A program made the translations under genes and the position numbers. The notes beneath the pieces were generated by a model. It saw nothing but the letters and a program-made list of their open reading frames with translations, had not been told where the DNA came from and did not search any database. A stretch of DNA of 64,000 nt from NCBI GenBank assembly GCA_017621085.1, contig JAGATW010000028.1:4107-68106 (forward strand). Reading direction: 5' to 3'. How positions within the stretch are numbered: the stretch's first letter is position 1; the number at the start of each line of letters is the position of its first letter. Below are positions 40,605 to 59,511 of the stretch, in pieces. This stretch comes from Clostridia bacterium (GTDB lineage: Bacteria > Bacillota > Clostridia > Oscillospirales > CAG-272).

Positions 40605-40622
40605 TTTTATTCTCCATTTATT

Positions 40623-40658: not shown

Positions 40659-43553
40659 TTACACTTGAGGGATATTTACAAGCTCATTATAAGATGCGCC
40701 TGTAATGCCAACTGTTGCTTCGCCATTTGAAATATAATTAATTGATGTGCCATCAAAGAGATATGCACACATAATTATTTTTGTATCGCTTGTTTTCTCG
40801 TTAAAGCCTTTTATTTTTATTTCAACTACACTTATTAAATTTCCAACAGGTATTTGAACAATGCCCTCATCAATTATTAATTCTCCATTCTTAAAGGAAA
40901 GTGGGTATTGTGTTTCATTAGTTGGATTTGCAAGCACGATAAAGCCATATGTAAGCTTATCGTTTACAGATTCACACAAGCTATATACGCCTAAGTTGAT
41001 TACATAGCCTTGAACCATACTTGCTTCGTTAAATTCGCTAACTGAATAACCAAGTGATTTTATCATTGGTTCAATCGCTTCCTCATAATAACCATTGTTA
41101 TCACATCTCATACAGTCGTATCTTGCGATGCCGTTTTCTAAATATCCATTTAGATATACTACATCTACAAGAGTACCCTTTAAATGTCCAAGAGCCGGAA
41201 GAACGGTTGTTTCAATTGTTCCCTCTGTAAAGGTTTCACTATTTGTTAAGGTGCCAACAAAGGTCTTATAGGTTGCAAATGATGCGGTTGAGCCACATGG
41301 ACAGTCTGTTATATAGCCAAAGCTACCATCCTTAGTACAGGTTGCATCCTCCATACCCTGCTCGTACTTATGTGGAATATCATACACAATTGTATATGCA
41401 GGATAGTCAATTCCACCCTTTGTTGTTGCGTTACAGCCATTAAAGGCATTTCCGTTAGTTATGGGAGCATTTGTGTAAATGGTAATACCGTGACATTGAT
41501 AGAAGGTATTGTTTGGCAAGGAAAGCTCCTCTGAGTGAATATATACCTCAACAGGCTTTTCACCACCATTCTCAACGCAGAAGGTATATTCCATTGACAT
41601 TGATGTAACCTCCATCAATACAATCTTCTGCATTTTTTGACAGTAGTCAAACGGCTTACCCATTAATGTTTTTATTCCTCTACCAACATACAGATATTCT
41701 ACTGCACAATCATAAAATGCAGCTTCATTACGGAAAATTGGCTCAGAATAATCAGGGAAAATAAGCTCCTTGATTTGTGTTCTTCTAAAGCAATTGTGTC
41801 CAAAATCGTATTTACTGAATGCGCTGAGCTTTAATTCTGTTAAGGATTTCTTTTCATTAAAGCAGCTTGCCTTAAATACAACATCTGCACCCTCAACCTC
41901 AGAGCGAATTGCCTGTATTACATTGTTAGAGCAGGATGATGCAAATTCAACCTTTGCTTTACCAATATTAATCTCTGTTATGCCTGTATATTTTGAAAAG
42001 CTTTCTATTATTACGTTGGCATTATTCTTTATATTTAATACCTTAAGAGTGCTATTGCTTTCACTAAAGTTGATTTTTGAAATACCAACAGGAATTTCAA
42101 TTGCTACTATACTTGCTACATCATATACATCAAATGATTTCAAGCCCGTTAATGTATATATTTTTGCACCCATAGTTTCAATACTGTCAAGCTTTAAAAC
42201 ATCTGAAACAAGTACTGTTACCACCTTTTCATAAGCATCACCGGTATTTGGGTCATTAATGCTTACCGTTACATTGATTTCAAGATTTGTTGGGTCAAAG
42301 GAATAGCTTTGGTCCATTTCCTTTGAGCATACTTCACATTTATAGCTCTTTGTACCGGGAGTTGTTTCTGTTGCAGGAATATGGTTAATAAGCTCCCAAA
42401 TATGCTCAGCAAGCGCGCCTGTGCGTATTGCAAAGCTTTCACCGCAAAGTGGGCAAATATAGCTTGAGGTTTTAAGGTTTACACAGGATGCATTCAAAAC
42501 GTTTATATCAAAGCCATGCTGACAAGAATCATTAGTTATAACGTCATATTTAACATCATCAATTGTAACACTTGTAATAGCCTTGCCTTCCCCGGCTGAG
42601 GACAATACAACTAAGCCACCATTTGTAAAGTTAGCACCATTTTCTACTGTTACTACATATTTATCAGCTGCACCATTATTCCAATATTCAATTGAATTAG
42701 CTCCGTCGGGCAATAAAAATGTACCATTACCGATTGTAAGATTTACAGTAGCTGCTTCACCTACGCTATTAAAATGCATTAATTTGTCTGCAACCTCAAT
42801 TTTCATTGGGTCAATTACAGCATTCAGAATTTCATCAAGAACACCATTAACACTTAATAGACGATTGCATTTTACAGTTCCGTGTACTTCAAACACAACC
42901 GGCTCAGTAATCCAACCACTTTCTAAGCGATTTGAAAAGTTGCAAAGGTTACCGGGTGTTTCGACAGTCACATTCTTACCTAATACAAAGCCAACCTTTC
43001 TGTCATCATAGCCGTGAATTTCTGTATTGAACAGGTGGCCTGAGCCTGTGTGAATAATACTACCCTCACCGACGATAAAAAGACCTGCTCTTCTCTGTGA
43101 AAATACATTCTTTGCACCGGAGATAATACTGTGACCATTTAGGTCAACGAAAAGTCTACCACCGTCGTTTATGCTAATTGTTGATTCAAGCACTAAGTCT
43201 TCTTGTAGTTGGATATACTGCCATCCCCATTGGCTACTGGTAGAGTTAATGTTTAAATTTGTGGAATAGTGTCCACTAAACTGATGGATATCTGTATCCT
43301 TAGTAACTGTGATAGTTTCACCCATTGCAAAAATATCGCCCTCATAGGTAAACCAATTAGTTACTTCGTTACCTGCGCCTGAATATGGAGTATCACGAAG
43401 AGTGATTGTACCTGTTTCATCTGTTTGAACTGTATCCTTTTTAGTGCCACCATCCCAATATGTTATATTGTACACCTCAGCTGAAATGCATATTGCCATC
43501 AAGCATACAAGAGCAAGTGACATTAAAAGAGAAAATAAAAGCTTTCTTTTCAT
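40659..43553 (-). CDS. Secreted 964-aa BspA-type leucine-rich-repeat surface protein with Cys/His modules
   Basis: Signal peptide MKRKLLFSLLMSLALVCLMAICISA. The central region has BspA-like repeats (FASSCSNNVIQAI.., FKASCFNEKKSLTELKL.., FGHNCFRRTQIKELIFPD.., EAAFYDCAVEYLYVG). Cys/His modules include CPLCGESFAIRTGALAEHIW...YKCEVCSKE. Confidence 0.7.
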   Translation of the reverse strand: MKRKLLFSLLMSLALVCLMAICISAEVYNITYWDGGTKKDTVQTDETGTITLRDTPYSGAGNEVTNWFTYEGDIFAMGETITVTKDTDIHQFSGHYSTNLNINSTSSQWGWQYIQLQEDLVLESTISINDGGRLFVDLNGHSIISGAKNVFSQRRAGLFIVGEGSIIHTGSGHLFNTEIHGYDDRKVGFVLGKNVTVETPGNLCNFSNRLESGWITEPVVFEVHGTVKCNRLLSVNGVLDEILNAVIDPMKIEVADKLMHFNSVGEAATVNLTIGNGTFLLPDGANSIEYWNNGAADKYVVTVENGANFTNGGLVVLSSAGEGKAITSVTIDDVKYDVITNDSCQHGFDINVLNASCVNLKTSSYICPLCGESFAIRTGALAEHIWELINHIPATETTPGTKSYKCEVCSKEMDQSYSFDPTNLEINVTVSINDPNTGDAYEKVVTVLVSDVLKLDSIETMGAKIYTLTGLKSFDVYDVASIVAIEIPVGISKINFSESNSTLKVLNIKNNANVIIESFSKYTGITEINIGKAKVEFASSCSNNVIQAIRSEVEGADVVFKASCFNEKKSLTELKLSAFSKYDFGHNCFRRTQIKELIFPDYSEPIFRNEAAFYDCAVEYLYVGRGIKTLMGKPFDYCQKMQKIVLMEVTSMSMEYTFCVENGGEKPVEVYIHSEELSLPNNTFYQCHGITIYTNAPITNGNAFNGCNATTKGGIDYPAYTIVYDIPHKYEQGMEDATCTKDGSFGYITDCPCGSTASFATYKTFVGTLTNSETFTEGTIETTVLPALGHLKGTLVDVVYLNGYLENGIARYDCMRCDNNGYYEEAIEPMIKSLGYSVSEFNEASMVQGYVINLGVYSLCESVNDKLTYGFIVLANPTNETQYPLSFKNGELIIDEGIVQIPVGNLISVVEIKIKGFNEKTSDTKIIMCAYLFDGTSINYISNGEATVGITGASYNELVNIPQV

Positions 43554-43698
43554 AGTAAATCTCCTTTCACATTTTTACATTTATAGTATATCACTTATTT
43601 ACTTGTAAGTCAACTTATTTTATGTGCAATTAGCATATTAATTTTCTAAAATATCAAGGTGTTTTGTGCATTTCATCCAACAGGCTTTTAAATTAAAA

Positions 43699-43730
43699 CA
43701 AAAAAAGAAACCCACGATTGTGGGTTTCCC
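43699..43730 (-). terminator. Terminator ending the copy-B MoxR/vWA/lipoprotein operon
   Basis: Stem GAAACCCAC-gatt-GTGGGTTTC, followed on the minus strand by T7. Confidence 0.8.
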
Positions 43731-43742
43731 TTTTATAATCAA

Positions 43743-46700
43743 TTAATACTGAATTTGAGAAAATACAAGGTCGCCAAATGAGTCTACCATTACAATGCTA
43801 CCGTCTTCGTAGTTTGTAAGAATTTGCTCAAGAGGAATACCTGCATTTACATCCTTTGAATCTTCCTCGTTAATATCAAATACGATTGTGTTTGATTCAA
43901 CTGTATATGTACCAACAAGCTCGAATGCATAGGATGTATCATAGAGATAGAATGCTGTTTCAGACTGGAACTCAAGAATCATCATATAGTCGCCATACTG
44001 CCATGCTGTGCCAGCTAATTCAGCTGCTGTGATGCCTGCGTTTTCTTCGTCATCAGAGCCTGTAGCCTCGTCAACTGTGATTGTGAACACCCACATATCT
44101 GGCATTACAAAGTTAACCCAGTACTCACCAGCAAGACCTTCGCTATCATCCTGCTTAGTTGCAACATTAAATACTCCACCTGAGGTCTTAGCAGCAAATG
44201 TTAAGTTGCCATTAGCATCAAAAGCAAGCTGAACGTCTGATGTTTCAACGCCATCCTTGTAAATTGTGAATACGCCATTTGCATATTCAAATGTGTACTG
44301 ACCATCAACGTCATTTCTACCATTGTTGTTATCAACAACGTCGATTGTACCTGTTATAGCAGATGGTTCTTCAGGAGCTACTGTTGCACCTGTGATTTCG
44401 ATTACGTACATTTCCGGCATAGGACCATTTACGCTGTACTTACCAACAAAATCTCCGTCGCTGCCATCAGTCTTCTCCATTGCTATAGGATTACGAAGAC
44501 CTGGACACTGGAACTGGTAGCCACCACCTAAACCAATAGAAATGATAATTGCATTTGTTTCCTCGCCATCCTTGTAAACAACAACTGTGCCATCATCTAA
44601 TAATACATAGTCATATGTACCGCTGTCTCTACCGTTATAAATGTTGTCAGTTACGATAATTTGACCATCATATTCAACACCAGCTACTTCGTCCGGTGTG
44701 AATACTACTGAATAGTGGTCTTGAGAGCCATAAGGACTATTAAAAATAGCTGTGTATGTACCGCCAAGAGCACCCTCTGCGCCATCTTGTTTTACAAGAG
44801 TAGCAACAACAGGAGATGTACCTACCTGAATTGTGTAGTTACCATCTAAGCCAACACCAATAAAAATGTTGTCAACCACTTCGCCGTCCTTGTAAATTAC
44901 AAATGCGCCATCTTCATTGATTTCATATGTGTATGTGCCATTAAGTGTAGGCTGACCATATGTCAATGCTGTGATTGTCATAGAACCTGTGTTAGCCTCT
45001 TCAACAGGCTCAGATGGAACAACAGGCTCAGCCTTTTCAAGAATGTAATCATTACCGTCTTGAGCGGTGATTACAAGCTCGTAGTTTTCATTTACACTTA
45101 TGCCAAGAGCAACATCGTCGCCACTTACATACTCAAATGCAATAGCACCATCAGCATAAGCATAGCTGAATACGCCAGTTGTAGGTTCGCCACCCATCAT
45201 TGCATTTTGATATGTGATTTCAACTGTACCTGTTGTTTCTGTTTCAGGTGTAAATGTTGCGATAATGTTTTCCATACCCCAATCATTTGTACCCTTGTAG
45301 TAGCCGTTGAGCATTGCAGCTACGTCCGGTGTTTCCAATACGTTAACTGTAAGCTCGCAGGAAAGTGTTTCTATCTTAGTAGATGTAAGCTTAATTGTAT
45401 ATGTGCCAACCTCAGAAGCTGTAAATACCTTAACAGCTTCGCCATCTTCCTCACCGTCTGTGAGTGAAGCTACTGTTTCAGCAATTTCGCCAAGGATTTC
45501 TGCTACATATGAGCCGTCCTCATATTCACCAACAAGAGCTTTAATGCTGATGGACTTGCCAACATACATATTGATTTCGCTCATTTCTTCAAACAACCAG
45601 TCTGATGGGTTATAAACGCCTGCAGAAATAGATGTTGGGTCTTCATAAGGAATTTCAACAGTTGTAACTGTTTCCTCACCATTAACCAAAATTGTTACAG
45701 TGTATGTGCCAGGAGTTGGAAGTGTAAAGAAGTATGAAAGTGTTTCTTCATTGAAGAATGGAAAGAAATATGGTTCTTCTCCATTTTGGTCAACAATCTT
45801 AAACTCGATGTTAGCAAAGTTAAAATCAGCTGTTACTGGAGAAACCTCTGTAAAGAAGAATTCTATAGGCGTACCTGCTTCTACATTTACAACATTTTCA
45901 GAAACGTCATTGCCGTCCTTGTCTGTAATTACATAAGAATCAATTTTAACACTTTCCGGGTCAAATGGGTTTGACTTGTTGTTTGTTGATTGCTCGATGT
46001 CATACTCATATGATGTGCCATATTCGTATGTTGTTTCGATTGCGATGTTAGCATTGGAAATAACGCCCTCTTCGTTAACTGTAAATACAACATTAGCTGT
46101 TGTTGTATCGTTTACTGTTAATGAGAATGTAAAGCTGTTGTTATCAACTGTGCCAACCACTGTACCCTCTTCAGCTGATGCAAGTGCCATATTGTACAAT
46201 GCTTCAATAAATGCTTCTACACCACATACAGCTGTTTCATAATCATCTGCAAAATCAAATGTAAATCTGTAGCCCTTCATTGACTCTTCTGATGTATTCT
46301 CATCAACCTGTGGAGCAAATGGAACCTGTACAAATACGCCAAATACGTCACCGTTCTTGTCGTATGCGTAGAAATACTGGTTAACATACTCATTTACAGC
46401 AATGATTCTTACAAAGTCATCATTGAACTCAGTCCATACAGCGCCGTATGTAGTCATGCCAGAGTAGTTACCTGCAGCAATTGTTGTCATTGTGCTTGTT
46501 ACAAGCTTACCAGCGTTAGCCTTTGCAATCTCAATTGCTTGAGCTACAGAGGTGATTTCCGGAAGCTTGAAGTAACCGCACTTGCAGTTACCAGCAGCAT
46601 CATAGCTGTGAGCCTCTACGCCACTCTTTTCATCACTGTGCTCGCAGGTTGCAGCATAGTAGTGATTTTCTTCGTCGTAGGAGTACTCTGTTGCGAATGT

Positions 46701-46928
46701 GTGTTCATGAACAACAACATCTTCGGTATTATCACCTGTGTTGTCGCCATTGTTTTCGCCGTCTTCGTCATCGTTGTTATTGTTATCATTGTTGACGCTT
46801 CCGGCAGTTGAGCTTGAAGAGCTTGGCTTTGGCTCTTCGCTCTGTTCCTCATCATCACAAGCAACGAAGCAAAGTGTCATTGACAACGCGATGAGAAGAC
46901 ATAGTGCTAAATACAAAAATCTTTTCAT
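43743..46928 (-). CDS. Large surface lipoprotein, 1061 aa (last gene of the copy-B operon)
   Basis: Lipobox LCFVAC, then a D/N/E-rich linker and a His/Cys module (HEHTF...ATCEH...AHSYDAAGNCKCGYF). Beta-rich domains follow, including three internal repeats of about 100 aa (GTYTYEINEDGAFVIYKDGE / GTYDYVLLDDGTVVVYKDGE / GQYTFEYANGVFTIYKDGVE). Confidence 0.85.
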   Translation of the reverse strand: MKRFLYLALCLLIALSMTLCFVACDDEEQSEEPKPSSSSSTAGSVNNDNNNNDDEDGENNGDNTGDNTEDVVVHEHTFATEYSYDEENHYYAATCEHSDEKSGVEAHSYDAAGNCKCGYFKLPEITSVAQAIEIAKANAGKLVTSTMTTIAAGNYSGMTTYGAVWTEFNDDFVRIIAVNEYVNQYFYAYDKNGDVFGVFVQVPFAPQVDENTSEESMKGYRFTFDFADDYETAVCGVEAFIEALYNMALASAEEGTVVGTVDNNSFTFSLTVNDTTTANVVFTVNEEGVISNANIAIETTYEYGTSYEYDIEQSTNNKSNPFDPESVKIDSYVITDKDGNDVSENVVNVEAGTPIEFFFTEVSPVTADFNFANIEFKIVDQNGEEPYFFPFFNEETLSYFFTLPTPGTYTVTILVNGEETVTTVEIPYEDPTSISAGVYNPSDWLFEEMSEINMYVGKSISIKALVGEYEDGSYVAEILGEIAETVASLTDGEEDGEAVKVFTASEVGTYTIKLTSTKIETLSCELTVNVLETPDVAAMLNGYYKGTNDWGMENIIATFTPETETTGTVEITYQNAMMGGEPTTGVFSYAYADGAIAFEYVSGDDVALGISVNENYELVITAQDGNDYILEKAEPVVPSEPVEEANTGSMTITALTYGQPTLNGTYTYEINEDGAFVIYKDGEVVDNIFIGVGLDGNYTIQVGTSPVVATLVKQDGAEGALGGTYTAIFNSPYGSQDHYSVVFTPDEVAGVEYDGQIIVTDNIYNGRDSGTYDYVLLDDGTVVVYKDGEETNAIIISIGLGGGYQFQCPGLRNPIAMEKTDGSDGDFVGKYSVNGPMPEMYVIEITGATVAPEEPSAITGTIDVVDNNNGRNDVDGQYTFEYANGVFTIYKDGVETSDVQLAFDANGNLTFAAKTSGGVFNVATKQDDSEGLAGEYWVNFVMPDMWVFTITVDEATGSDDEENAGITAAELAGTAWQYGDYMMILEFQSETAFYLYDTSYAFELVGTYTVESNTIVFDINEEDSKDVNAGIPLEQILTNYEDGSIVMVDSFGDLVFSQIQY
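44070..44990 (-). repeat. Three diverged internal repeats of about 100 aa in the copy-B large lipoprotein (approximate borders)
   Basis: Recurring pattern G.Y.YE....G.F.IYKDGE......I..G..G.Y......... followed by K.DG..G...G.Y. Confidence 0.6.
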
Positions 46929-47023
46929 ATTTTAGCCTCCTTCATATAAAATAATTTATAAATAACTCTTGTGTGTGGGGATTTGGCACTTATCCCCACA
47001 AAAAGAATTTTTACCTATTGGTT

Positions 47024-48751
47024 TTATTCATAATAGCCACAAGCAAAGAGCCATTGGCTATTCTCAGCAGACTCGTATGGGATATCTCCTGTTTCAGCCC
47101 ATCCGTCTCCGTCCATAAACATAACCTGGTTTACAGAATATTTTTGCAAGAATTGACGTACCTCCTCTGTTACAGGAACAGCACCGTCACTGTTTGCAAT
47201 ATCGTGGTAGCCCTTGAGATTGGTATATGCCTCGTCAAGCTCTATATAGCCACCATATGTAGTAAGTGAGGATGATTGCGCGTGATTATAGCCCTCAACA
47301 AATAGCTTGTAGTTTTCCGTTCCGTTTGAAACGGTTAGCGCCTTGTTTCCTCGATATTCAATATTAATAAGAGCATCGTCAAGAATACCTGTTCTTGTAG
47401 CAACTGAAATATCAGCATATAATATTGGACCATAGCCAAAGCCATAACCGTTTTCAGAGTCATCGGTATACTTGGTTTCATCATATTTATGATAGAAGCC
47501 TGTTTTTTCATTATAGCGATAATTACTTTCAAGCAAAACTACCTTGCCGGAAATAGTTTCTGCCGGGGTTTGCCATGTTTTGCCCTTATCTAAATCGTAA
47601 TAGTGATTAAAATATCTTATTAAGTATTGATTTGCAAAATTATAGAGTAGTCTGTTTTCTTCTTTGTTGAAGAAAGCATTCATATAAAGCGCATCATTTA
47701 GATTACTCTCTGTTAAATCATGCATATTATAGTAAGCAAGCGGGTCATTTTCAAAAGCAGGATATTTTGCTATCAGCTCTTCCTTAGTATATGACCTTAG
47801 CTCTCTTAATCTATCAGACATTATAGCATAGATTTCATTTGGAAGCATATAATCTGACACTGCATGTTCAAGCTCAAAGCCACCCTCATACTGTACTGCA
47901 AAGTTAATTTGTGCCGGGAAATACTTATCGTTTCTTGCAGAGGTGTGAATGGCAAATATAAATACTACCTGTCCACCACCTGAGCTTGATATCATTTCCT
48001 CAGCTATTTCCACCTCATACTTAAAGTTCTTTGTATAGTTTTTGCCCTCTTTACCACCTGCATCTAAGGTGTAAAGGTAGTTAGGAGCAGCAAAGCTACT
48101 TGAATAAACGTCAATTTTTGGATTTACCTTATCGTCATAGGTTGACACCCAGGATTCAATTGTGTATGTGCCACTTTTTCTTGGCTTAAATTCATAGTAA
48201 ACCTTTTGATTATCGTTTTTCAAGGTTACACTATACATACTTGTTTCCTTAATTACCTTACGACTATATAAGCTATTTCCAGTACCTGTGGTAGTTCCTA
48301 TTGGGTATATATCCACGGTAATTTCAGGATTATCATTTGTTGCAATATAGATGTTAGGGTTATATGTATAGCCCTCTGGCATATTTTTAAGGGAAACACT
48401 ATAATCTCCGTCTAAACCAAGGGCTGTTGCATAGCCCTCATCATTTACAGCCGAATCAACAAAGGAAATTCCATCATTCCAATTTACGATAACGGGATTA
48501 GACTTATCAAAAGCATTAAATGGTTCTCCACTTAATGATAGATTTACCTTAAATACTATTTCATCTTCATCGTCCGGCTTTTCCGGTTTGTCGGGATTAT
48601 CTACATTGTCATTATTATCGCTTGAAGTAGTTGTATCAGGCTTTGAGCTTTCTGTACTACTTGGCGTGCCACTTGGATTTTCGGTATTGTCACATCCTAT
48701 GATTGCAAGCAAGAGGAGCATGGCTAAAATGGTTAAAAGTATTTTTTTCAT
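47024..48751 (-). CDS. Lipoprotein, 575 aa (paralog of 1800..3518)
   Basis: Lipobox LLLAIIGC followed by an S/T/D/P linker. Colinear with the copy-A protein. TAATG overlap with the upstream gene. Confidence 0.85.
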   Translation of the reverse strand: MKKILLTILAMLLLLAIIGCDNTENPSGTPSSTESSKPDTTTSSDNNDNVDNPDKPEKPDDEDEIVFKVNLSLSGEPFNAFDKSNPVIVNWNDGISFVDSAVNDEGYATALGLDGDYSVSLKNMPEGYTYNPNIYIATNDNPEITVDIYPIGTTTGTGNSLYSRKVIKETSMYSVTLKNDNQKVYYEFKPRKSGTYTIESWVSTYDDKVNPKIDVYSSSFAAPNYLYTLDAGGKEGKNYTKNFKYEVEIAEEMISSSGGGQVVFIFAIHTSARNDKYFPAQINFAVQYEGGFELEHAVSDYMLPNEIYAIMSDRLRELRSYTKEELIAKYPAFENDPLAYYNMHDLTESNLNDALYMNAFFNKEENRLLYNFANQYLIRYFNHYYDLDKGKTWQTPAETISGKVVLLESNYRYNEKTGFYHKYDETKYTDDSENGYGFGYGPILYADISVATRTGILDDALINIEYRGNKALTVSNGTENYKLFVEGYNHAQSSSLTTYGGYIELDEAYTNLKGYHDIANSDGAVPVTEEVRQFLQKYSVNQVMFMDGDGWAETGDIPYESAENSQWLFACGYYE

Positions 48752-51438
48752 TATGCTTTTCCTCCTGCCTTACTTTTTTTAAAAAAGCTCTTAATATCTG
48801 TCCATTTAAGCTTTCTTACAATTATGTCAATGACGAACAATACTATTGCTGCTACCATTAGTGGTATTGTGTAATAATAAATGTAGGTTTCAATTTCGCT
48901 TTCGTCATTTTCAATTTTCAAAGCTCCGTTTTCACTAACGTTGCCACTATTTCCAACGGAGTTATATAGAATTGCAGAGTCAAACAAATCAAATCTATTG
49001 TATTCAGATAGATATGATATGTTAAAGCTTGTGCTTCCTTCAAATACCTCTTCGCCAAAGATATAGTTAACGCTTACATCGTATTTGCCTATTTCACCAA
49101 CCTCAAAGGGTAGCTGATACAAGCCCTTTTCATAGTAAAGACGTGCAACTGTTTCCTTTCCATTCGGTGATGTTATTTTAACATCTACTACAACGTCAGG
49201 ATTATTTTCGGCAGGGATTACCTCTAAAACTGCTCCTGTATTTTCAACGGATACACCAATATTAAATGGATAGTCTAACCTTTCCTTTGGTGTATTGGTT
49301 GTTAATAATCCGGTTAAAACAGATGCTCCATTAGGGTCATTATACCAATTATCAATCCATTTTCCGGAAAAGGTGGTTGAAAGTGATGCTACTCGTCCGT
49401 TACCATAATTCCAATAAGAATAAAGTGGTACTAAAACAGTTTCTCCTGTTGGAAATTTATACTCAACATTTAAAACCGTGGTAGCATTTGATTTGGTAAC
49501 ACCAAAATAATATCCACCAATGTTCGGAAGCTCTAATATACCTTGAATTATTGGGTCCTCATAATCTTCAATAATTACAGGAATATCGCCCTCAATTAAT
49601 GTTTCTGTTATATCGTCTGCAATTTCTGTTGATACAACCTCAGATACCTCCTCGGGAGATTCAACAAAATAGTAATTACCACGACCGGCAGTTGCAATTT
49701 GCTTTAATAATTCTTGAGCGCCTGCTACTGTACTATTGGTATTGATGGTTGACACAGCAATACCTGATTTGCGCATTTGGGACACAATATTAATTGGGTC
49801 ATCCTTTTGGTCAACTGCAAGATATGTACGTCCGTCACTTATGAGTATAGCGTGCTTTTGATAGAAGGATTGATTTTCCATCATTTCCTTTGCAAGCTTT
49901 AAGCCTGCGCCAAGCACGGTGCCCTGTGTTGGTTGAATACCATTTATAGCTTGAATAATTGTTTCCTTATGAGCCACTGCTGTTGGCATTAGAGCCATGG
50001 AAGCATCACCCGATACGGAGAAAATTGCTACATAGTCCTGTGGGGACATTGTATTTAAAAGCTCAATTGCTGATTGCTTTGCCATTATAAGCTGATAAGC
50101 ATCCTGCATACTTCTTGATGAGTCGATAACTATACCGTATAGCTTAGGCTCGCCGCTTGTATTACCATACTGGATTGCCATCATATCCTTAAAGGCTGAA
50201 TACAAATTATTATCTTGGTTTTGAACAAAGGTATTACCGGCAGTTATTAAGCTTTTACCAAACTTGGATACTACTATGTCAAGATTTGAAATAAAGGCTG
50301 TTGCATTTTCAATTTCCTTTATATCTATGCTTGACAAAATAAATTCATCAAACTTACAAAGCTCCTCTATGCTATACGGCACAGGCTCTTTCTTTTTCAA
50401 TAGAAGCGGTGCATATATTTCAGCACTTTCACCATAAAGCTCTTCAGCTCTTGTTAAGTCAGCCTTTGTATTTGAAACAAGTAAAACCTTAATCTTTTCG
50501 TTTACTGTTTGAGTAAAGTAAAATTCGTTATTGTGCGGAGATGTATCGTGACTTGCATCAACCACGACCTTATAATCCTTTACTCCACCTGTAGTTGTAT
50601 CAAGGTCAATTGTTATTAGGTTAAAGCCCTTATGAAGTGGCTTTGATACCTCCTTCTTCATTACACCTGCTTCATCATACAGGCGAATAAAGGCATCATT
50701 TCTGTCCTTTTGATTTTCATCATTTGGAATATAATCAGTATTTGACTGAATTAATATCTGTAAAACGGAATCGTGGTTTAAATAGGTTGATTTAACATAA
50801 TCTACGCTATTAATTTGAACCTCGTATTCGGTGTCCTTTATGTTGCTATCAAGATAAATTGCGTCAACATAAATGTCCTGTGCCTCAAGATTGCTTATAG
50901 CATTTATAATTCTTGAAGCTTCAGTTGTCAAGGTTTCCTTACCGTCTGTTAACAAAACTATTCTTTTGATTGTGTTGCTTGAAAACATAGTTGATGCATA
51001 ATTTAGCGCACTTACTATGTCTGTTGCACTTGTATCAACCAAGGTATTCTTTACAGATGAAAACTCACCACCAAATTCAGTATTGATAGCATAATCTCTG
51101 CCGAAGCAAACTACACCTACCTTAGAATTGGCAGGAAGATTTTCCTTTTTAATCAATTCCTTTATGTATTCATCTGTTTTGTCAATGTTGCTATTTGTGG
51201 AGTAGGAAACATCGGCTACAATTAAAACCTCTGTTTCTGTTTTAACAGTTATTTTTTGTAGTCCTGCAAGGGCAAGTGCTACTAACGCCACCATTACGGT
51301 GTGCAATATTAATGTTGTAATTGTTGATTTGCTCTTATTCTCTTTTCTTATGGCAATTATGTACGGTACTACCAATAATGCCAGCATAGGAATGGCAATT
51401 AGCAACAAGTATGGATTATCGAAGCTGATACTTGTCAT
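48751..51438 (-). CDS. Membrane protein with BatA-type N-terminus and two vWA (MIDAS) domains
   Basis: N-terminus MTSISFDNPYLLLIAIPMLALLVVPY. MIDAS motifs IVADVSYSTN and IVIDSSRSM. C-terminal TM helix. 23-nt overlap with the upstream gene. Confidence 0.85.
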   Translation of the reverse strand: MTSISFDNPYLLLIAIPMLALLVVPYIIAIRKENKSKSTITTLILHTVMVALVALALAGLQKITVKTETEVLIVADVSYSTNSNIDKTDEYIKELIKKENLPANSKVGVVCFGRDYAINTEFGGEFSSVKNTLVDTSATDIVSALNYASTMFSSNTIKRIVLLTDGKETLTTEASRIINAISNLEAQDIYVDAIYLDSNIKDTEYEVQINSVDYVKSTYLNHDSVLQILIQSNTDYIPNDENQKDRNDAFIRLYDEAGVMKKEVSKPLHKGFNLITIDLDTTTGGVKDYKVVVDASHDTSPHNNEFYFTQTVNEKIKVLLVSNTKADLTRAEELYGESAEIYAPLLLKKKEPVPYSIEELCKFDEFILSSIDIKEIENATAFISNLDIVVSKFGKSLITAGNTFVQNQDNNLYSAFKDMMAIQYGNTSGEPKLYGIVIDSSRSMQDAYQLIMAKQSAIELLNTMSPQDYVAIFSVSGDASMALMPTAVAHKETIIQAINGIQPTQGTVLGAGLKLAKEMMENQSFYQKHAILISDGRTYLAVDQKDDPINIVSQMRKSGIAVSTINTNSTVAGAQELLKQIATAGRGNYYFVESPEEVSEVVSTEIADDITETLIEGDIPVIIEDYEDPIIQGILELPNIGGYYFGVTKSNATTVLNVEYKFPTGETVLVPLYSYWNYGNGRVASLSTTFSGKWIDNWYNDPNGASVLTGLLTTNTPKERLDYPFNIGVSVENTGAVLEVIPAENNPDVVVDVKITSPNGKETVARLYYEKGLYQLPFEVGEIGKYDVSVNYIFGEEVFEGSTSFNISYLSEYNRFDLFDSAILYNSVGNSGNVSENGALKIENDESEIETYIYYYTIPLMVAAIVLFVIDIIVRKLKWTDIKSFFKKSKAGGKA

Positions 51439-53284
51439 AGCAATACACCACCCAATCTGCCACCATAATTACAGCCAAGCAAATAAAGAATATTATGAGC
51501 TTATCGTATATGCCATCAAAGCCCTTTCCACTTGCTTCGCCAAGGAGGCTAATTTCGCCCTCGTTTTCTGTTACGGGGTCTTTTTCCTCATCTACCATTG
51601 CAGAATAGATATTGAAGCTTCTCGCCTGTCCTGCAATTGTTGCAGTAATTGTGTAAACACCCACCTCGTCAAGCTGAAATTCACTTATCATTTCTTTTGT
51701 GCTTAAGTGAGATATTTTACCTCTTGGGCTTTCTACACGAATGCTTTCGCAATTAGACACTATATTAATTTGCGCCTTGTCGCCACATTCATAAAAGGCT
51801 TCATCAATTACAGATGGGAATGAGAATTTTATAAGATTATTTACTAAAAATACATAATCTGCCAAAAGTGGCAAATCTGAATTGTGAAGGTCAAATGCAA
51901 ATACAACCTCACGGTTTCCATAGGTATTTACACCTGTGAATATTACCGGATTTCCTTCATGAGTGAACAATGTATCAAAATTACGATATGTATCGTACTT
52001 TGAGTACTTTGATACATATATTTCGTTTCCGTCCACATCACTCAAAAGCTTTCTTATAGTTGATGCACTTGCCTTTGTTTTTGATATTTTCTCTGCCTTA
52101 TCAAGCTTAATTTCACCTTGATAATTAAAGCCGGAATTTTCTATACTCGCGGTTGAATTTATTAGCCATACGCTACCATCATCCGGTACGGATTTTGGAT
52201 TACAGGAATGGAATACATATAAGCCATAGCCCTTGATTTCTCTTGACTTATTTTCTTCCTTTGTCAAGTAGTCATTAGGAGACATAACTGTTATGCTCTC
52301 ACTTCCTACACTCTTCAAAACTGTTTCTAAGAAAAATGGTGTTTGACTTACTAACAATGTTTTATAAGCATTTGCCTTATTCACGTTGTAAATAACGCTT
52401 TCGTTATCAAGTGCTAAAGCGTCACTATTAAGGATTTTGACTGTTGCACTATCAAAGCTTTCAACATACAAATCAAATGTAAATTTCTTTGCTACACCCT
52501 TTTGTACGCTTATTTCCTGTTGTGCGCTTTCATCTCCGGCATTTACCTGAAGATTAATTGTTGCGTCGCTTTCATAAGATGTTACATAACCACTAATGCT
52601 TAAGCTACCTAAAACAGAATAATCATATGTAACCTGTGACAAGGCATAGTTGTCCTTTTCGCTTGCTACATTTATTAGATGAATGTTCTTAGCCTCACTA
52701 TAGGACTTGTCCGTAACAAGATATGTAAGAGTACCCTTGTTTGCATCAAAATATGATTGCGCTTTAGACAAAGCAGTACTTACGTTTTGAGAGCCGAAGC
52801 CGGATTTTAGTTCATCTATAAGGAGCAAGGCATCATCTTTATCTGTTTCCTTTTCAAAAACAGTTGTGGTGTTATTATCAACACAGATAAGGGTATATAA
52901 GCTACCATTGCCTGAATCCTCAATGATTTCTTTTATTCTGTCCTTGCCTACCTCAAATCTTGACTTGTTATTTTCCATTTCCATACTCATGCTTCCACTT
53001 GAATCAAGTATGAAGCAATATTCATTTGCTCCATTTGGTATTGTAAACACCGGTTGAGCTATGGTTAAGGAAATAATAGCAATTGCCAAAATCTGCAAAA
53101 TCAAGCTAATAATACCTGTCAGCTTGTTGTCTTTTTTCTTTTTCTTTAAGAATTTTTCGCTAAGAGTCCATAGATAAGTAGCAGACACAGTTTGCTCTGT
53201 GTACTTGCTCTTAATTATGTAAATTAATACAAGAATTGGAATTCCTATTAATCCCAATAGTCCTAAGGGATACTGAAAGCTCAT
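51416..53284 (-). CDS. BatA-like TM-vWA protein (intact copy, 622 aa)
   Basis: N-terminus MSFQYPLGLLGLIGIPILVLIYII (aerotolerance-regulator N-terminal type). MIDAS motif FILDSSGSM. C-terminal TM helix LIIFFICLAVIMVADWVVYCY. Confidence 0.85.
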   Translation of the reverse strand: MSFQYPLGLLGLIGIPILVLIYIIKSKYTEQTVSATYLWTLSEKFLKKKKKDNKLTGIISLILQILAIAIISLTIAQPVFTIPNGANEYCFILDSSGSMSMEMENNKSRFEVGKDRIKEIIEDSGNGSLYTLICVDNNTTTVFEKETDKDDALLLIDELKSGFGSQNVSTALSKAQSYFDANKGTLTYLVTDKSYSEAKNIHLINVASEKDNYALSQVTYDYSVLGSLSISGYVTSYESDATINLQVNAGDESAQQEISVQKGVAKKFTFDLYVESFDSATVKILNSDALALDNESVIYNVNKANAYKTLLVSQTPFFLETVLKSVGSESITVMSPNDYLTKEENKSREIKGYGLYVFHSCNPKSVPDDGSVWLINSTASIENSGFNYQGEIKLDKAEKISKTKASASTIRKLLSDVDGNEIYVSKYSKYDTYRNFDTLFTHEGNPVIFTGVNTYGNREVVFAFDLHNSDLPLLADYVFLVNNLIKFSFPSVIDEAFYECGDKAQINIVSNCESIRVESPRGKISHLSTKEMISEFQLDEVGVYTITATIAGQARSFNIYSAMVDEEKDPVTENEGEISLLGEASGKGFDGIYDKLIIFFICLAVIMVADWVVYCYDKYQLR

Positions 53285-54165
53285 TTCAATACCTCCTTTT
53301 CTACCATCCTGCCAAAGAAGACATCGCCCATTGAGTCCTCAGATGATACTAATAGGTAATGTGCGCCTCTTGATGCACAAACATTGCCTATTCTTTCTTG
53401 AACATACTCAAGCGCTTTTCTGTACGCTTGCATTATATCCTTTTTAATATTCTTTCTGTAAATCTTTTCAGCAGATTCAGAGTCATACAAATGTACCTTA
53501 CCTCTGATTTTCGGATTAAGCTCGTCCGGCGACAAAACCTGAATACAGAACACATCTCTTTTCTTATCGGCTAAGTGGTTAATAGCACTTTCATAATCGT
53601 TATCTGTTAGAAAATCAGAAATAATTACCGACATACCATCGCCATAGCCAACGCTTGATGGAATAACGGCATCACTAATATAGCTATCTCCACTAAACTC
53701 TAAATCGTTTAGCTTGCCTATTTCGCCAACATAAGAGTCCTTTCCAACCATACCGGAAATAATTTCTATTATCTCCTTGTTACGTATAGCATAAATGGAA
53801 ACCTTGTCCATTTCGTTAAGAGAAAGGTATGCAACCGTTGCGGCAAGTCTTAGTGCTTGCTCTGCCTTATCGGCTCTACCATATTCCATTGAACGGCTTG
53901 CATCAATGTATATCTTGGTGTGCATTTGACGTTCGTCAAGATAAAGCTTTTGATAAAGCTTATCAAAACGAGCATATGCATTCCAATCTATTTTGGTTAT
54001 ATCATCACCCGGAATATAATCACGATAATCAGCAAACTCACAGGATGAGCCGAAGGTTTTACTTTGGTGAGTTCCACCAAACAAGCCTGCAACATTATTT
54101 TTAATAAGCGATTGCAATGCTTCTACCTGCTGTAAAAATTCCTCGTTGATTATTGAATTCTTCAT
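53281..54165 (-). CDS. DUF58 family protein
   Basis: Block FADYRDYIPGDDITKIDWNAYARFDKLY. 294 aa. 4-nt overlap with the downstream gene. Confidence 0.85.
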   Translation of the reverse strand: MKNSIINEEFLQQVEALQSLIKNNVAGLFGGTHQSKTFGSSCEFADYRDYIPGDDITKIDWNAYARFDKLYQKLYLDERQMHTKIYIDASRSMEYGRADKAEQALRLAATVAYLSLNEMDKVSIYAIRNKEIIEIISGMVGKDSYVGEIGKLNDLEFSGDSYISDAVIPSSVGYGDGMSVIISDFLTDNDYESAINHLADKKRDVFCIQVLSPDELNPKIRGKVHLYDSESAEKIYRKNIKKDIMQAYRKALEYVQERIGNVCASRGAHYLLVSSEDSMGDVFFGRMVEKEVLK

Positions 54166-54177
54166 TTTTGCTGACCT

Positions 54178-55161
54178 TTATTTCTTTTTTGTTTCTTTCA
54201 CAAGTAAATCAATTACATCATCAACAGTCAGCTTTTCATTTACGGCAGTATAATTGATTTTAATTCTATGTCTTAATACAGGACGTGCAAGTGCTTCGAT
54301 ATCCTCATATGAAACATTAAAGTTGCCATTTATGAGCGCTCTTACCTTAGCACAAGTAATTAATGCCTGTGCAGCACGTGGAGATGCACCGTATTTAATA
54401 TATTTCTTTGTACAATCAGGAGATTTTTCAAGCTCTGCGTGAGTGTTAGATACAAGCTTAACTGCATACTTAACAACATCATCAATAACCGGAACCTGAG
54501 AAGCAAGCTGTCTCATTTCAAGAATTGTAGGTCCATCTACAACTGCTTGAGCATTTTCATCAAGTGTGATTTGTGTCATGTTTACAATGTCAACAAGCTC
54601 TTCATCGCTTGGGAACTTCATTATTAGCTTAAACACAAAACGGTCCATTTGCGCCTCCGGCAATGGATATGTACCGTCCTGCTCAATTGGGTTCTCTGTT
54701 GCAAGCACAAAGAATGGCTCCTCAAGGTCATATCTATCGTTACCGACTGTTATTTTATGCTCCTGCATTACTTCAAGCATAGCAGACTGTGTTTTTGGTG
54801 TTGCACGGTTAATTTCGTCAGCTAAAACAAGATTTGCAAAAATAGGGCCTTTACGGAAGGAGCTTACCATTTTTCCTGTTGCATCCTTTTCAATTACATT
54901 TGTACCTGTAACGTCAGATGGCATAAGGTCAGGAGTAAACTGTATTCTTGAGAATGGTAGGCTAAGAGTTCTACCAAGAGAACGAACTAAACGTGTTTTA
55001 CCAACGCCCGGTACACCCTCTAAAAGAACGTTACCGCCTGCTATAATTGCGATTATTACATTATCTACGATTTCATTTTGACCTACAACGTCCTTGCGAA
55101 GCTCTGCTTTGATTAAGCTAACTGTTTCACTAAACTTTTTTACCTTTTCCATGTTTTCCAT
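54178..55161 (-). CDS. MoxR-family AAA+ ATPase
   Basis: Walker A GVPGVGKT and Walker B LVLADEINR. By eye, about nine of ten residues are identical to the copy-A protein. Confidence 0.9.
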   Translation of the reverse strand: MENMEKVKKFSETVSLIKAELRKDVVGQNEIVDNVIIAIIAGGNVLLEGVPGVGKTRLVRSLGRTLSLPFSRIQFTPDLMPSDVTGTNVIEKDATGKMVSSFRKGPIFANLVLADEINRATPKTQSAMLEVMQEHKITVGNDRYDLEEPFFVLATENPIEQDGTYPLPEAQMDRFVFKLIMKFPSDEELVDIVNMTQITLDENAQAVVDGPTILEMRQLASQVPVIDDVVKYAVKLVSNTHAELEKSPDCTKKYIKYGASPRAAQALITCAKVRALINGNFNVSYEDIEALARPVLRHRIKINYTAVNEKLTVDDVIDLLVKETKKK

Positions 55162-55184
55162 ATCATTAATTTCCTTTACTTTTC

Positions 55185-56675
55185 TTAATTTTGACCACCT
55201 TGAGGTGTTATTAGTACCGAATAATACTTCCTCAAGATTTCAGCTAATTCCTCAGAAATTTCGCCATTGCGTAGCATTTCTGTAATTTTGGATTCGTAAT
55301 TTGCAATAACCTCACCATACTGAACGTTTATGTTGTCAACGTTTCCAGCCGGCTCTTTGTCCTTGTCTATAACTATATCGTCACTACCAAAAATATTTCC
55401 ACCTGCACCGTATCCACCGTCTTCACCAACTTCCGGTCTGTCCTCCGGCTCGGTAGTTTCAAAATCATCATTTTCGTCGGTTTTTTCCTTAATATCATCC
55501 TCGGTAATACCGAATATACGCATAAGCTCGCTTACTACACGGTCTTTTACGTCATTATTGACTTTTTCCTGTGGTATAATCTTCTTAAGCTCACCAATCG
55601 CTGTACGATTAAAAGCTTCATCAATTTTAGAAAGAATGTTTTCATCTGTATATGTTCTTTCAACAATCAGAGTTAATGAGTCGTTTAGTGCTTTCAGCAC
55701 TCCATACAGTCCATCTTCCTCGCCAAGTCCCGAGTTACGAATAATTGCACCTAATTCATCATTAAAATCTGCAATGTCATCCTTGCTGCCGCCAAGCACA
55801 AACAAGCCTGAGCTAATTGATACGAACTCAGTTTCAATTACACTCATATTCAAGCTATATAAGGCAAGACTAAGCTTCTTTATGCTACTATTTGAATTAT
55901 CCTTAGCAAGCATATGTACTTTAAATGTTGAGCTGGCTCCATTTACATGGGCACGCACCGCTTTGATTACACCAACTACATATTCCTTCATTTGAGATTG
56001 CATTCTCAAATTATCAAGCTCTGAAAGCAATACATTCAGCTCGGATAGAACATTTGCCTTAACGTCAGCCTGCATATTTGATTTTTCAACCTCTTGAATT
56101 AAAGCCTCAAGAGCGATTCTTTGATGGTCGGTAGGAGTAAACTCCTCATCCTCATCATCCTCACCACCCTGTTGGGTGTCATCACCCGGGTCATGTGTGG
56201 GGGTATTCTCCTCACTTTTAAATGCTACAACTATGGCTGTAACAAGGTATGCTGCACAGATAACAAGAGCAACAAAAAAAGCAACTAATCCTTTTAGCAA
56301 GCCAAGCATATTGGTTGGTTTGCTATCGAGGATTTTTATTGCATCCTCTCTTTGAAGAAGCTTAATATCTCCATCGTCATCCAAAAAGGCGTGCATTGTT
56401 TGAATTTTTTCTCTTAAGCCATATGTATTATCAAGCTTTTTTGCCAGCTTTTTATCATTTGGCTTGAGAACAAAAAACGTGCCAAGTCCTAAAAGTAATC
56501 CAAAAGCAACACCTGTAAGAACTGCGTAAACCATATTAAAGTCAAGCTTTTTAAGCGTGGTTACAATTAGGAAGGTTGCAACGACAAGTAAGACGGCACA
56601 GATGCCTGTAAGAATAGCCTTTATAACAGCATCTAACACATATTTTTTCTTAAAGCGTTTAAAGCTCTCACCCAT
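55185..56675 (-). CDS. Three-TM membrane protein with an acidic helical C-terminal domain (first gene of the copy-B operon)
   Basis: The ORF track start is 56693. AAAGGAGGA lies inside that extension, so the ATG at 56675 or 56678 (MGESFKRF, compare copy A MGEGFKRF) is the likelier start. Confidence 0.75.
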   Translation of the reverse strand: MGESFKRFKKKYVLDAVIKAILTGICAVLLVVATFLIVTTLKKLDFNMVYAVLTGVAFGLLLGLGTFFVLKPNDKKLAKKLDNTYGLREKIQTMHAFLDDDGDIKLLQREDAIKILDSKPTNMLGLLKGLVAFFVALVICAAYLVTAIVVAFKSEENTPTHDPGDDTQQGGEDDEDEEFTPTDHQRIALEALIQEVEKSNMQADVKANVLSELNVLLSELDNLRMQSQMKEYVVGVIKAVRAHVNGASSTFKVHMLAKDNSNSSIKKLSLALYSLNMSVIETEFVSISSGLFVLGGSKDDIADFNDELGAIIRNSGLGEEDGLYGVLKALNDSLTLIVERTYTDENILSKIDEAFNRTAIGELKKIIPQEKVNNDVKDRVVSELMRIFGITEDDIKEKTDENDDFETTEPEDRPEVGEDGGYGAGGNIFGSDDIVIDKDKEPAGNVDNINVQYGEVIANYESKITEMLRNGEISEELAEILRKYYSVLITPQGGQN

Positions 56676-56713
56676 CATTGTTCCTCCTTTCATTTTTTAT
56701 AATATTATTTATT

Positions 56714-56742
56714 ATTTTAACACAAATATATAATGGTGTCAA
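56714..56742 (-). promoter_or_regulatory. Predicted sigma-A-type promoter of the copy-B MoxR operon
   Basis: On the minus strand: TTGACA, 17 nt, TAAAAT, with extended TGt. Confidence 0.5.
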
Positions 56743-56904
56743 GGCGAAAATTACAAAATATACTTTTTTCCACTTTTTTAGACAAAAATGTAAAAATATG
56801 ACGATGGATTTCTTTTTCATCAATTTTGAATTCTCGTTTAACTTTTTGTCGTGAATAGTTTTGTTTCAGTTTAGCATCGTTTTGTAAAATTGTTAAAAAT
56901 AATA

Positions 56905-56933
56905 TTGATAAAATTGTAAATGTGTGTTAAAAT
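56905..56933 (+). promoter_or_regulatory. Predicted promoter of the copy-B two-component/plsY operon
   Basis: TTGATA, 17 nt, TAAAAT, with extended TGt. Confidence 0.45.
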
Positions 56934-56963
56934 GTTAATCTATCGTAAATAAGGAGGGATTAT

Positions 56964-58705: not shown

Positions 58706-58717
58706 GAGATAACTTGA

Positions 58718-59404: not shown

Positions 59405-59410
59405 TTTTTT

Positions 59411-59442
59411 GAGGATGAGGCGAATTTTGTCGTTTTATCCTC
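59411..59442 (+). terminator. Hairpin between plsY and the lipid kinase gene, copy B (terminator or attenuator)
   Basis: Stem GAGGAT / ATCCTC followed by TTTTTGTTTATTTTTAGTTTATTTTTGTG. An extended -10 (TGgTAATAT) follows near 59480..59488. Confidence 0.45.
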
Positions 59443-59511
59443 TTTTTGTTTATTTTTAGTTTATTTTTGTGTTTTATTATGGTAATATAGATTCTTTAAG
59501 GAGATGATAAT

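Follow-up and report, generated by a model that had tools for sequence, protein, structure and literature searches.

A Bat-like MoxR-DUF58-vWA cassette with one constant and one variable lipoprotein, fixed in gene order across uncultured Clostridia

Bat-like operons, in which a MoxR ATPase is encoded together with a DUF58 protein and von Willebrand factor A (vWA) membrane proteins, are widespread, and to our knowledge no molecular function has become accepted for them after 25 years. A locus from a Clostridia bacterium (GTDB lineage Bacteria; Bacillota; Clostridia; Oscillospirales; CAG-272) raises the question of what such a core does when large lipoproteins are encoded in the same operon. The locus lies in a stretch of 64,000 nucleotides, here called the window (GenBank assembly GCA_017621085.1, contig JAGATW010000028.1, positions 4,107 to 68,106 of the forward strand). 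In it, seven minus-strand genes (43743..56678), which we refer to in order of transcription as P1, MoxR, DUF58, P4, P5, P6, and P7, are flanked by a conserved promoter and a strong terminator and, as judged from the sequence, form an operon. A sequence-only reading of the window had proposed these genes as a candidate undescribed envelope machine. Here we show that, across many species, they constitute a cassette of fixed gene content and gene order. What is new is confined to the accessory families; the engine (MoxR and DUF58) and the vWA membrane proteins have the defining features of the MoxR-DUF58-Bat class. The term undescribed was therefore apt for the accessory proteins, but not for the engine and the vWA scaffold, which belong to a broadly conserved class.

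The evidence for a fixed cassette comes from related genomes. Scanning with a profile of P6, at one genome per species, yielded 179 stretches with a match, and 80 loci were retrieved. All ORFs (open reading frames) of these loci were searched with the window proteins; 60 loci had enough upstream sequence to be considered full, 20 were partial, and 71 could be evaluated downstream. All 80 loci were from metagenome-assembled genomes (MAGs) of uncultured Clostridia and the source, where named, was animal gut. In each full locus (60 of 60), P6 was immediately preceded by P1-MoxR-DUF58-P4-P5 with unchanged order and strand, and all 20 partial loci fit the P1-to-P6 order. The position after P6 (position 7) was taken by a large lipoprotein in 68 of the 71 evaluable loci, with sizes from 520 to 2060 aa (median 1070), and the same fraction (68/71) applied to position-7 orthologs with a lipobox-type N-terminus. 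No P6-family gene was found outside a MoxR cassette among the 80 loci. The suggestion that the lipoproteins are conserved neighbours of the MoxR/vWA core was thus borne out, both for P6 (60/60) and for the P7 class (68/71). Median identity to the window proteins was 78% for MoxR, 66% for DUF58, 46% for P4, 41% for P5, 33% for P6, 27% for P1, and 26% for P7. The MoxR-DUF58 engine is the most conserved part of the cassette, and the gradient is the one expected for a conserved engine with a surface-exposed periphery. A search of full-text literature, in which P1, P6, and the His/Cys repeat described below were not looked up singly, returned no description of the cassette.

Profile searches with Pfam agreed with the Bat-like core that had been proposed, namely MoxR, DUF58, a protein with BatA_N and vWA domains (P4), and a second vWA membrane protein (P5). 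MoxR matched AAA_3 (5e-60) and AAA_lid_2 (2.1e-17), as well as PDB entry 2r44 (6.7e-74); it scored 201.5 bits with the classical AAA_3 model versus 52 bits with the bpMoxR model of conflict systems. Its Walker B motif reads DEINR. A single marginal hydropathy segment (aa 35-53, score 1.88) overlaps the P-loop region, and the protein was treated as soluble and is presumed to be cytoplasmic. DUF58 (PF01882, 3e-29) is encoded directly downstream of moxR after a gap of 12 nt. It has no transmembrane (TM) segment over the hydropathy cutoff, and the D88, S90, and S92 residues of its DxSxS motif are invariant in 66 sequences. We infer that DUF58 is the cytoplasmic vWA-like partner of MoxR.

P4 (BatA_N 2e-10, VWA_2 2.4e-9) begins with a BatA_N two-TM hairpin, continues with a vWA domain that carries a metal ion-dependent adhesion site (MIDAS) at D94 and with a further ectodomain of ∼400 aa, and ends in a C-terminal TM anchor. 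P5 starts with a two-TM hairpin, which is followed by two vWA domains (D76 and D439; two VWA_2 stretches in Pfam), a GATase1-like region, a C-terminal TM anchor, and a basic tail. The GATase1_like match (PF07090) after the second vWA domain was sub-threshold, with E values between 4.6e-6 and 0.01 for the paralog and orthologs. The long start of P5 is backed by 73 orthologs in which the first 48 residues are conserved. P5 had been described as a protein with a BatA-type N-terminus, two MIDAS vWA domains, and a C-terminal TM helix. The latter two features hold, but the N-terminus is only weakly BatA-like, with no Pfam BatA match and an hhalign probability of 58% that concerns TM2 only. In a sequence search of the PDB, P4 had no match and P5 a single marginal one, to the fimbrial vWA protein Mfa5 (E = 0.044).

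The MIDAS residues of these proteins are strongly conserved. For P4, all 69 sequences have D94 and S98, with either Ser or Thr at position 96; in P5, D76 is present in 74 of 75 sequences (the remaining one has a gap) and D439 in 75 of 75. The three MIDAS motifs claimed earlier, one in P4 and two in P5, were all recovered, but the total is four, as DUF58 also has an invariant DxSxS. All four MIDAS-type motifs are invariant or nearly so across 66-75 orthologs. Hydropathy and charge gave P4 and P5 the same overall plan: the N-terminus forms a two-TM hairpin whose loop is basic, a big ectodomain follows, and the C-terminal TM segment carries a basic tail. Following the positive-inside rule, the hairpin loops would be cytoplasmic and the vWA ectodomains outside. 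This predicted orientation agrees with that of the BatA-like protein BB0173 of Borrelia, for which a periplasmic location of the vWA domain was established by experiment (PMC5700661).

The accessory proteins P1, P6, and P7 fall outside described families, as the sequence-only reading had proposed. None of them matched a family above threshold in Pfam, NCBIfam, or PADLOC, these searches also yielded no catalytic or defence family, and there was no PDB match for the P1 fold or for the P6 and P7 sequences. P1 (pI 4.6) has three TM helices, a TM2-TM3 loop (aa 72-124), a very acidic linker after TM3, an all-alpha domain (aa 184-397), and an acidic tail. Based on hydropathy and charge, the loop of ∼50 residues is predicted to be cytoplasmic, with the linker, the helical domain, and the acidic tail outside. 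This loop holds the longest conserved stretch of the protein and many of its top-conserved residues (A79, D83, L88, E90, T94, M95, Q109, and R110). An AlphaFold2 (AF2) model of P1 (mean predicted local distance difference test score, pLDDT, 77.8) showed the three TM helices and, at aa 184-397, a bundle of alpha helices predicted with confidence, and a comparison with PDB folds gave no match (best E 0.28). Several candidate relatives of P1 were rejected. LPG_synthase_TM matched 15 of 20 homologs, at best with 5.6e-6 and below the 33.4-bit cut-off, and LapA_dom and Tetraspanin matched on the three TM helices; we set all three aside because we read them as matches to hydrophobic composition. A profile search for distant relatives returned the same ∼20 proteins plus P0280, which has an unrelated neighbourhood without MoxR and was dismissed as spurious.

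P6, the constant lipoprotein, has a signal peptide that ends in a lipobox (...LLAIIGC followed by D) and no C-terminal TM segment, and both P6 and P7 are predicted to be lipid-anchored on the outer face. The AF2 model of P6 (pLDDT 85.7) contains a disordered linker, two beta-sandwich domains, and an alpha/beta C-terminal domain of ∼275 aa. In a Foldseek search of the PDB it matched the CBD/PPC (collagen-binding) domain of ColG, the C-terminal domain of Clostridium perfringens enterotoxin (C-CPE), and DUF3823 lipoproteins at ∼1e-5. These fold matches were all short (∼120-260 columns) and of the beta-sandwich type, and for the C-terminal domain there was no assignable fold match among the 50 listed per library (PDB and viral structures), most of which were short and involved beta-sandwich or binding modules. 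Among 30 P6 homologs, six had matches to SpaA-type prealbumin folds and three to BatD (PF13584), the latter with E values of 0.05-0.16 and far below the cut-off. BatD itself is marked by a PF13584 domain, a signal peptide, and a C-terminal TM segment. The P6 family comprises 905 clusters at 50% identity (E <= 1e-3). As the top 150 clusters are all 349-719 aa in size, no domain fusions are visible among them. In the majority consensus of 30 aligned P6 homologs, the C-terminal domain includes an insert rich in Cys (CxCxxxxxGxCxxGCxxCxxxC), located between P6 aa ∼490 and ∼515, and the two P6 copies in the window are apparently without it.

P7, the variable lipoprotein, is highly acidic (pI 4.05) and starts with a near-canonical lipobox (...LCFVAC followed by D). 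After an acidic linker come a single His/Cys module and a beta-rich region, and near the C-terminus there are three repeats of ∼105 aa that can be read directly from the sequence. In orthologs the His/Cys module occurs in 1-7 tandem copies with a period of ∼50 aa, in the N-terminal part of the position-7 lipoproteins (e.g. in loci L013, L065, L048, and L078), with the consensus HxHT[YF]xxEWSxDxxxHWHAATCGH...HxDxNNDGxCDVC. Locus L065, for instance, has seven repeats at 11516-12700. At least 56 position-7 lipoproteins have the module and several others carry variant forms of it; mostly it is in the gene right after P6, and at times also in a lipoprotein further downstream. The repeat went undetected by Pfam and had no sequence match in the PDB. 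When the position-7 proteins of nine diverse loci were searched with Pfam, no domains were found, save for a Big_3 and a CBM-like match in one. The His/Cys repeat resembles a small module for metal binding, to which a Ca-type DxNNDG loop may be added, and the repeats probably bind metal.

How this cassette relates to known systems is best seen by comparing it with each of them. BatA and BatB are proteins of ∼330 aa. In the aerotolerance (Bat) operon of Bacteroides fragilis (BatI) and in the spirochete clusters of Leptospira and Borrelia (bb0170-bb0176), genes for MoxR, DUF58, BatA, and a second membrane vWA protein are arranged in one same-strand cluster, just as they are here, and the cassette further resembles these systems in having intact MIDAS motifs and, by prediction, extracytoplasmic vWA domains. 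Unlike the Bat systems, it is without the TPR proteins BatC and BatE and without a clear BatD. The absence of TPR-type partners had been noted before and was confirmed: no TPR family was found in any of the seven products (Pfam, E <= 0.01), and the list of families for the P1 alignment (E <= 1) included none either. P4 and P5 also differ from BatA and BatB in being 2-3 times longer, with extra ectodomains and C-terminal anchors and, in P5, two vWA domains. In addition, the cassette adds P1, P6, and P7, and its host is presumed to be one of the monoderm Clostridia rather than a diderm. The proteins of Rhizobium leguminosarum RL3499-RL3502 combine a BatA-type double-TM N-terminus with GATase1-like regions. 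RL3499-RL3502 is described as a "broadly conserved" operon of MoxR, DUF58, and membrane proteins (cited in PMC5700661). It shares with the cassette a MoxR-DUF58 engine followed by large membrane proteins, but it is proteobacterial, has four genes, and is without lipoprotein genes or a P1-like acidic helical membrane protein.

Within the Gram-positives, yeaC-yeaD-yebA of Bacillus subtilis is a MoxR-DUF58-transglutaminase cluster. Membership of this type of cluster (PMC8430577) was considered and rejected, as there was no match to a transglutaminase core and TgpA_N was touched by only 2 of 20 P1 homologs, with E = 0.077. The PFNA cluster of Bifidobacterium (pkb2-fn3-aaa-atp-duf58-tgm; PMC8430577) and the Esr pathway of oral Actinomycetales, where a MoxR core is tied to a divergent surface protein (bioRxiv 10.64898/2026.09.08.750141), are like the cassette in that Gram-positive MoxR and DUF58/vWA proteins are tied to a large divergent surface protein, with a conserved engine and a variable surface part. 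PFNA and Esr, however, feature transglutaminase, Ser/Thr kinases, and FHA domains, and surface proteins with FN3, Ig-repeat, or beta-propeller structures, none of which occur in the cassette, whereas the surface proteins of the cassette are lipoproteins and its scaffold consists of BatA-type vWA membrane proteins. The MoxR-vWA conflict systems (PMC7159879) were rejected in the same way, there being no third component or effector and a bpMoxR score of 52 bits against the AAA_3 score of 201.5. Pfam found no VMAP, iSTAND, FtsH, beta-propeller, effector, or kinase/FHA modules in the cassette. A MoxR-class AAA+ ring working with a MIDAS vWA adaptor is the arrangement of RavA-ViaA, CoxD-CoxE, NorQ-NorD, CbbQ-CbbO, and BchI-BchD, and in this respect the cassette is like them. 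The cofactor-insertion and remodelling pairs act on a soluble or membrane enzyme on the ATPase's side of the membrane; the cassette, unlike them, encodes no target enzyme, and three of its four MIDAS motifs are predicted to be extracellular.

With these comparisons in mind, the account that we favour, tentatively and with a confidence that falls just short of an even call, is that the cassette is a lineage-specific variant of the Bat-type MoxR-DUF58-vWA envelope system, with one constant and one variable lipoprotein and a role in surface interaction or envelope organisation. In this account a MoxR hexamer, with DUF58 as its vWA-type adaptor, would act at the cytoplasmic face, where it would be likely to target the BatA_N hairpin loops of P4 and P5, the tails of these two proteins, and, in P1, the conserved loop between TM2 and TM3. 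Such action might assemble the extracellular vWA scaffold or switch its state. From hydropathy and charge, five of the products are predicted to expose large domains outside; these include the acidic helical domain of P1, three vWA domains with a MIDAS, and modules of the GATase1-like and beta types. The scaffold could hold both lipoproteins through contacts between MIDAS and acidic (carboxylate) residues; candidate ligands are the acidic stretches located just past the membrane anchor in P1, P6, and P7. P6 would then be the constant adaptor subunit and P7 the fast-evolving, modular, outermost element, and the output would be surface interaction (adhesion or ligand capture) or envelope organisation, and probably not a catalytic pathway. 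We prefer surface interaction or envelope organisation over catalysis because of the binding-type folds of P6, the modular hypervariability of P7, and the lack of an enzyme family among the matches.

Several observations weigh against this account. The ATPase and the MIDAS ectodomains are predicted to be on opposite sides of the membrane, and coupling would have to run through short loops and tails; we know of no Bat-type system in which such trans-membrane coupling was demonstrated. Several Glu, Asp, Tyr, His, and Lys residues in the conserved C-terminal domain of P6 (aa 300-575) are invariant, among them E465, K482, E486, D547, and E553, and this domain could be an unrecognised enzyme. That the genes are on a single transcript is deduced from sequence features, and the P6-P7 spacer contains a hairpin. 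Finally, bat mutants of Leptospira biflexa showed no change in morphology or growth rate (PMC3557215). A bolder reading is an integrin-like transmembrane switch, in which ATP hydrolysis by MoxR-DUF58, acting on the loops and tails of P1, P4, and P5, would set the ligand affinity of the three extracellular MIDAS sites, or in which signals would travel inward in the reverse direction, to deploy or read a hypervariable metal-binding P7. We think this reading improbable; if it were right, it would offer a general mechanism for the Bat/MoxR-DUF58 class.

The proposed role also has to be weighed against other functions known from related systems. A maturation chaperone of the kind suggested by the sequence-only reading, with MoxR-DUF58-vWA as the machine and the lipoproteins as its clients, for example in metal loading of the His/Cys repeats of P7, would fit the cofactor-insertion roles of MoxR-class pairs such as CoxD/CoxE, NorQ/NorD, and the BchI/BchD chelatases. 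Both lipoproteins are indeed conserved beside the core, the P7-class proteins have 1-7 His/Cys modules resembling metal sites, and P5 and MoxR had weak NCBIfam matches to chelatase subunits (Cob-chelat-sub 5.5e-11, BchD-ChlD). Nevertheless, we regard this possibility as unlikely. The chelatase matches are far below the family cut-offs and reflect only the common AAA+ and vWA folds; the repeats and MIDAS sites are predicted to be outside, whereas ATP hydrolysis would be cytoplasmic; the invariant P6 has no His/Cys repeats in this genome; and the cassette encodes no metal transporter or enzyme target. The same data would, moreover, fit structural subunits or a variable sensor or adhesin. The Bat operon of B. 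fragilis and RL3499-RL3502 of R. leguminosarum reportedly have roles in envelope integrity or in tolerance to oxygen and other stress. A Bat-like function in stress or envelope homeostasis, with the lipoproteins standing in for BatC, BatD, and BatE as lineage-specific partners on the periplasm-equivalent side, seems decidedly unlikely to us for the present cassette, even though its core gene content is that of Bat-like operons (PMC5700661, PMC3557215), faint BatD matches exist in 3 of 30 P6 homologs, and the hosts are strict gut anaerobes, where Cys/His repeats outside the cell might be sensitive to redox state. The BatD matches are far below threshold and a TPR protein is missing from the seven products, and for L. 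biflexa, with bat mutants unchanged in morphology and growth rate, a role of Bat in oxidative defence was proposed, not demonstrated (PMC3557215). The extreme variability of P7, too, would be more in keeping with an interaction protein exposed at the surface than with a housekeeping stress factor.

An outside-in surface sensor comparable to Esr, in which P7 together with P6 would detect a phage, epibiont, or host ligand and pass the signal via the vWA proteins to MoxR-DUF58, appears very improbable. The Esr model does have the same pattern, in which the MoxR/vWA core is conserved and the surface protein diverges strongly (bioRxiv 10.64898/2026.09.08.750141), and in this genome a two-component system divergently adjoins both copies of the cassette (see below for the second copy). 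The two-component system, however, does so in only 6 close relatives of 80 loci, no kinase, FHA, effector, or other output domain is present in the cassette, the MoxR protein is of the AAA_3 rather than the bpMoxR type (201.5 versus 52 bits), and PADLOC yielded weak generic AAA+ matches only. That same PADLOC scan of the seven proteins, with nothing beyond these weak matches for MoxR, led us to reject a defence system. It could finally be argued that there is no functional unit at all and that P1 and the lipoprotein genes are beside the core by chance or through local genome history, given the 95-nt gap with a hairpin between P6 and P7 and a duplication that carries many unrelated neighbour genes as well. 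We consider the chance of this close to negligible: none of the 60 full loci departs from this gene order or strand, not even those whose P1 and P6 are at only ∼25-35% identity, the junctions are overlapping or very short, and none of the 80 loci has a P6-family gene outside this context.

The cassette offers a simpler setting in which to study Bat-type systems, with a presumed monoderm host and an unambiguous predicted topology that places the ATPase inside and all BatA-type MIDAS sites outside. The operon itself encodes, in an unvarying order, candidate binding partners of the vWA domains, namely P1, P6, and P7; classical Bat operons lack such candidates. Three unrecognised families, P1, P6, and the ∼50-aa His/Cys repeat, are specific to abundant uncultured gut Clostridia, and they look like surface-exposed determinants of contact with the environment. 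As a whole, the cassette looks like one cell-surface machine.

The layout of the operon in the window is summarised below, together with that of the second copy. The ORF coordinates agree with the same-strand arrangement of seven genes and with the gene order reported earlier, and the start of P1 at 56678 is backed by a protein of identical length (497 aa) in a public MAG record. The junctions had been described as overlaps or gaps of 12-24 nt. This is correct for the 23-nt overlap of P4 and P5, the 4-nt overlap of DUF58 and P4, the 1-nt TAATG junction of P5 and P6, and the gaps of 23 and 12 nt, but the gap between P6 and P7 is 95 nt. The operon was likewise said to be bounded by a strong promoter and a strong terminator, and this matches what we found: the promoter is the top-scoring site of the region, with 11 of 12 consensus positions, and the terminator has a 15-pair stem. 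The totals of promoter-like and terminator-like matches in the region were not above shuffled expectation, and we give weight to these two elements because of their position and quality and, for the promoter, because it is also conserved in the second copy and two relatives. In copy B and in the diverged relatives L005 and L007, the -35 element, the extended -10 element, and the ribosome-binding site (RBS) are kept while the remaining intergenic sequence has diverged. With the P6-P7 spacer taken as 98 nt, the fold has an energy of -22 kcal/mol (z = -2.5), and no U tract follows its hairpin. Copy B is without this hairpin, and its P6' and P7' genes are only ∼18 nt apart. The hairpin could be an RNA-stability element, a partial terminator, or an attenuator that sets the P6:P7 ratio.

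Features of the cassette (copy A) and of its second copy (copy B) in the window
Feature	Position	Strand	Details
Promoter, SigA/sigma-70 type	56714..56742	-	TTGACA-17-TGtTAAAAT, TG-extended -10
P1	55185..56693	-	ORF; likely start 56678 (MMGESF...), giving 497 aa
MoxR	54178..55161	-	327 aa
DUF58	53281..54165	-	294 aa
P4	51416..53284	-	622 aa
P5	48751..51438	-	895 aa
P6	47024..48751	-	575 aa
Hairpin in P6-P7 spacer	46975..47000	-	8-9 bp, GC-rich; GTGGGGAT, 9-nt loop, ATCCCCAC
P7	43743..46928	-	1061 aa
His/Cys module of P7	46560..46706	-	aa 75-123; HEHTFATEYSYDEENHYYAATCEHSDEKSGVEAHSYDAAGNCKCGY
Intrinsic terminator	43701..43734	-	15-pair stem, then T run
Copy B cassette	1..11431	-	cut by window edge; same gene order as copy A
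P1'	9965..11431	-	
MoxR'	8940..9938	-	
DUF58'	8041..8925	-	
P4'	6168..8044	-	1-nt indel; two ORFs, 7640..8044 and 6168..7649
P5'	3515..6190	-	
P6'	1800..3518	-	
P7'	starts near 1781	-	runs off window

The second copy had been taken as a sign that the whole unit is kept in two diverged versions and hence functional. A second copy with the same gene order is real, with identities between copies A and B that range from 38% (P7) to 90% (MoxR), but it is part of a larger duplicated block of ∼25 kb with at least 16 genes. The block corresponds to 1..15111 versus 35830..60384 of the window, plus, for the part to the left of the window, a locus of another assembly from the same population (L087). Its gene order is FKBP-type protein, 201-aa protein, Hydrolase_3, 2-thiouracil desulfurase, MgtC, NUDIX, and the cassette, and then, divergently, response regulator, histidine kinase, PlsY, and DagK-like kinase. 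The downstream neighbours of copy B were seen on a longer contig that carries this copy, and they are the same set as those of copy A. As the duplicated block spans ∼25 kb and includes housekeeping-type genes, it is less informative on selection for the operon itself. The argument from two copies nonetheless retains some force, in that both keep intact frames after deep divergence once the P4' indel is set aside as assembly-specific. This indel (7640..7650) lies in an A5 run (gccAAAAAgg). Over 13.5 kb, the corresponding L087 sequence shows 99.97% identity and one gap only, and its P4' is intact (625 aa), for which reason we regard the indel as an assembly error or a strain-level homopolymer variant and not as a mark of a decayed gene. 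Copy B as a decaying pseudogene copy was rejected on the same ground, the 1-nt A5 indel being its sole frameshift.

Some neighbouring features remain to be mentioned. Past the terminator lies a minus-strand gene (40659..43553) for a secreted Cys-rich protein of 964 aa with BspA-type leucine-rich repeats (LRR_5), which has a promoter-like site of its own (43613..43585). Its homologs follow P7 in the closest relatives only (L006, L007, and L009) and not in copy B, which places this further surface protein outside the conserved cassette. On the other side, the operon and the genes for an OmpR-type response regulator and a histidine kinase share a divergent promoter region in both copies (56694..56963 and 11432..11612). 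An alignment of these regions from the copies and relatives revealed no evident shared regulator-binding repeat, with only the -35, extended -10, and RBS of the operon being kept. The two-component system and the PlsY and DagK-like genes were rejected as parts of the system. Because the response regulator and histidine kinase genes are located upstream of P1 in only 6 of the 80 loci, we view all of these flanking genes as lineage-specific passengers of the duplication. Both PlsY and the two-component system appear to be retained in this genome as two diverged versions.

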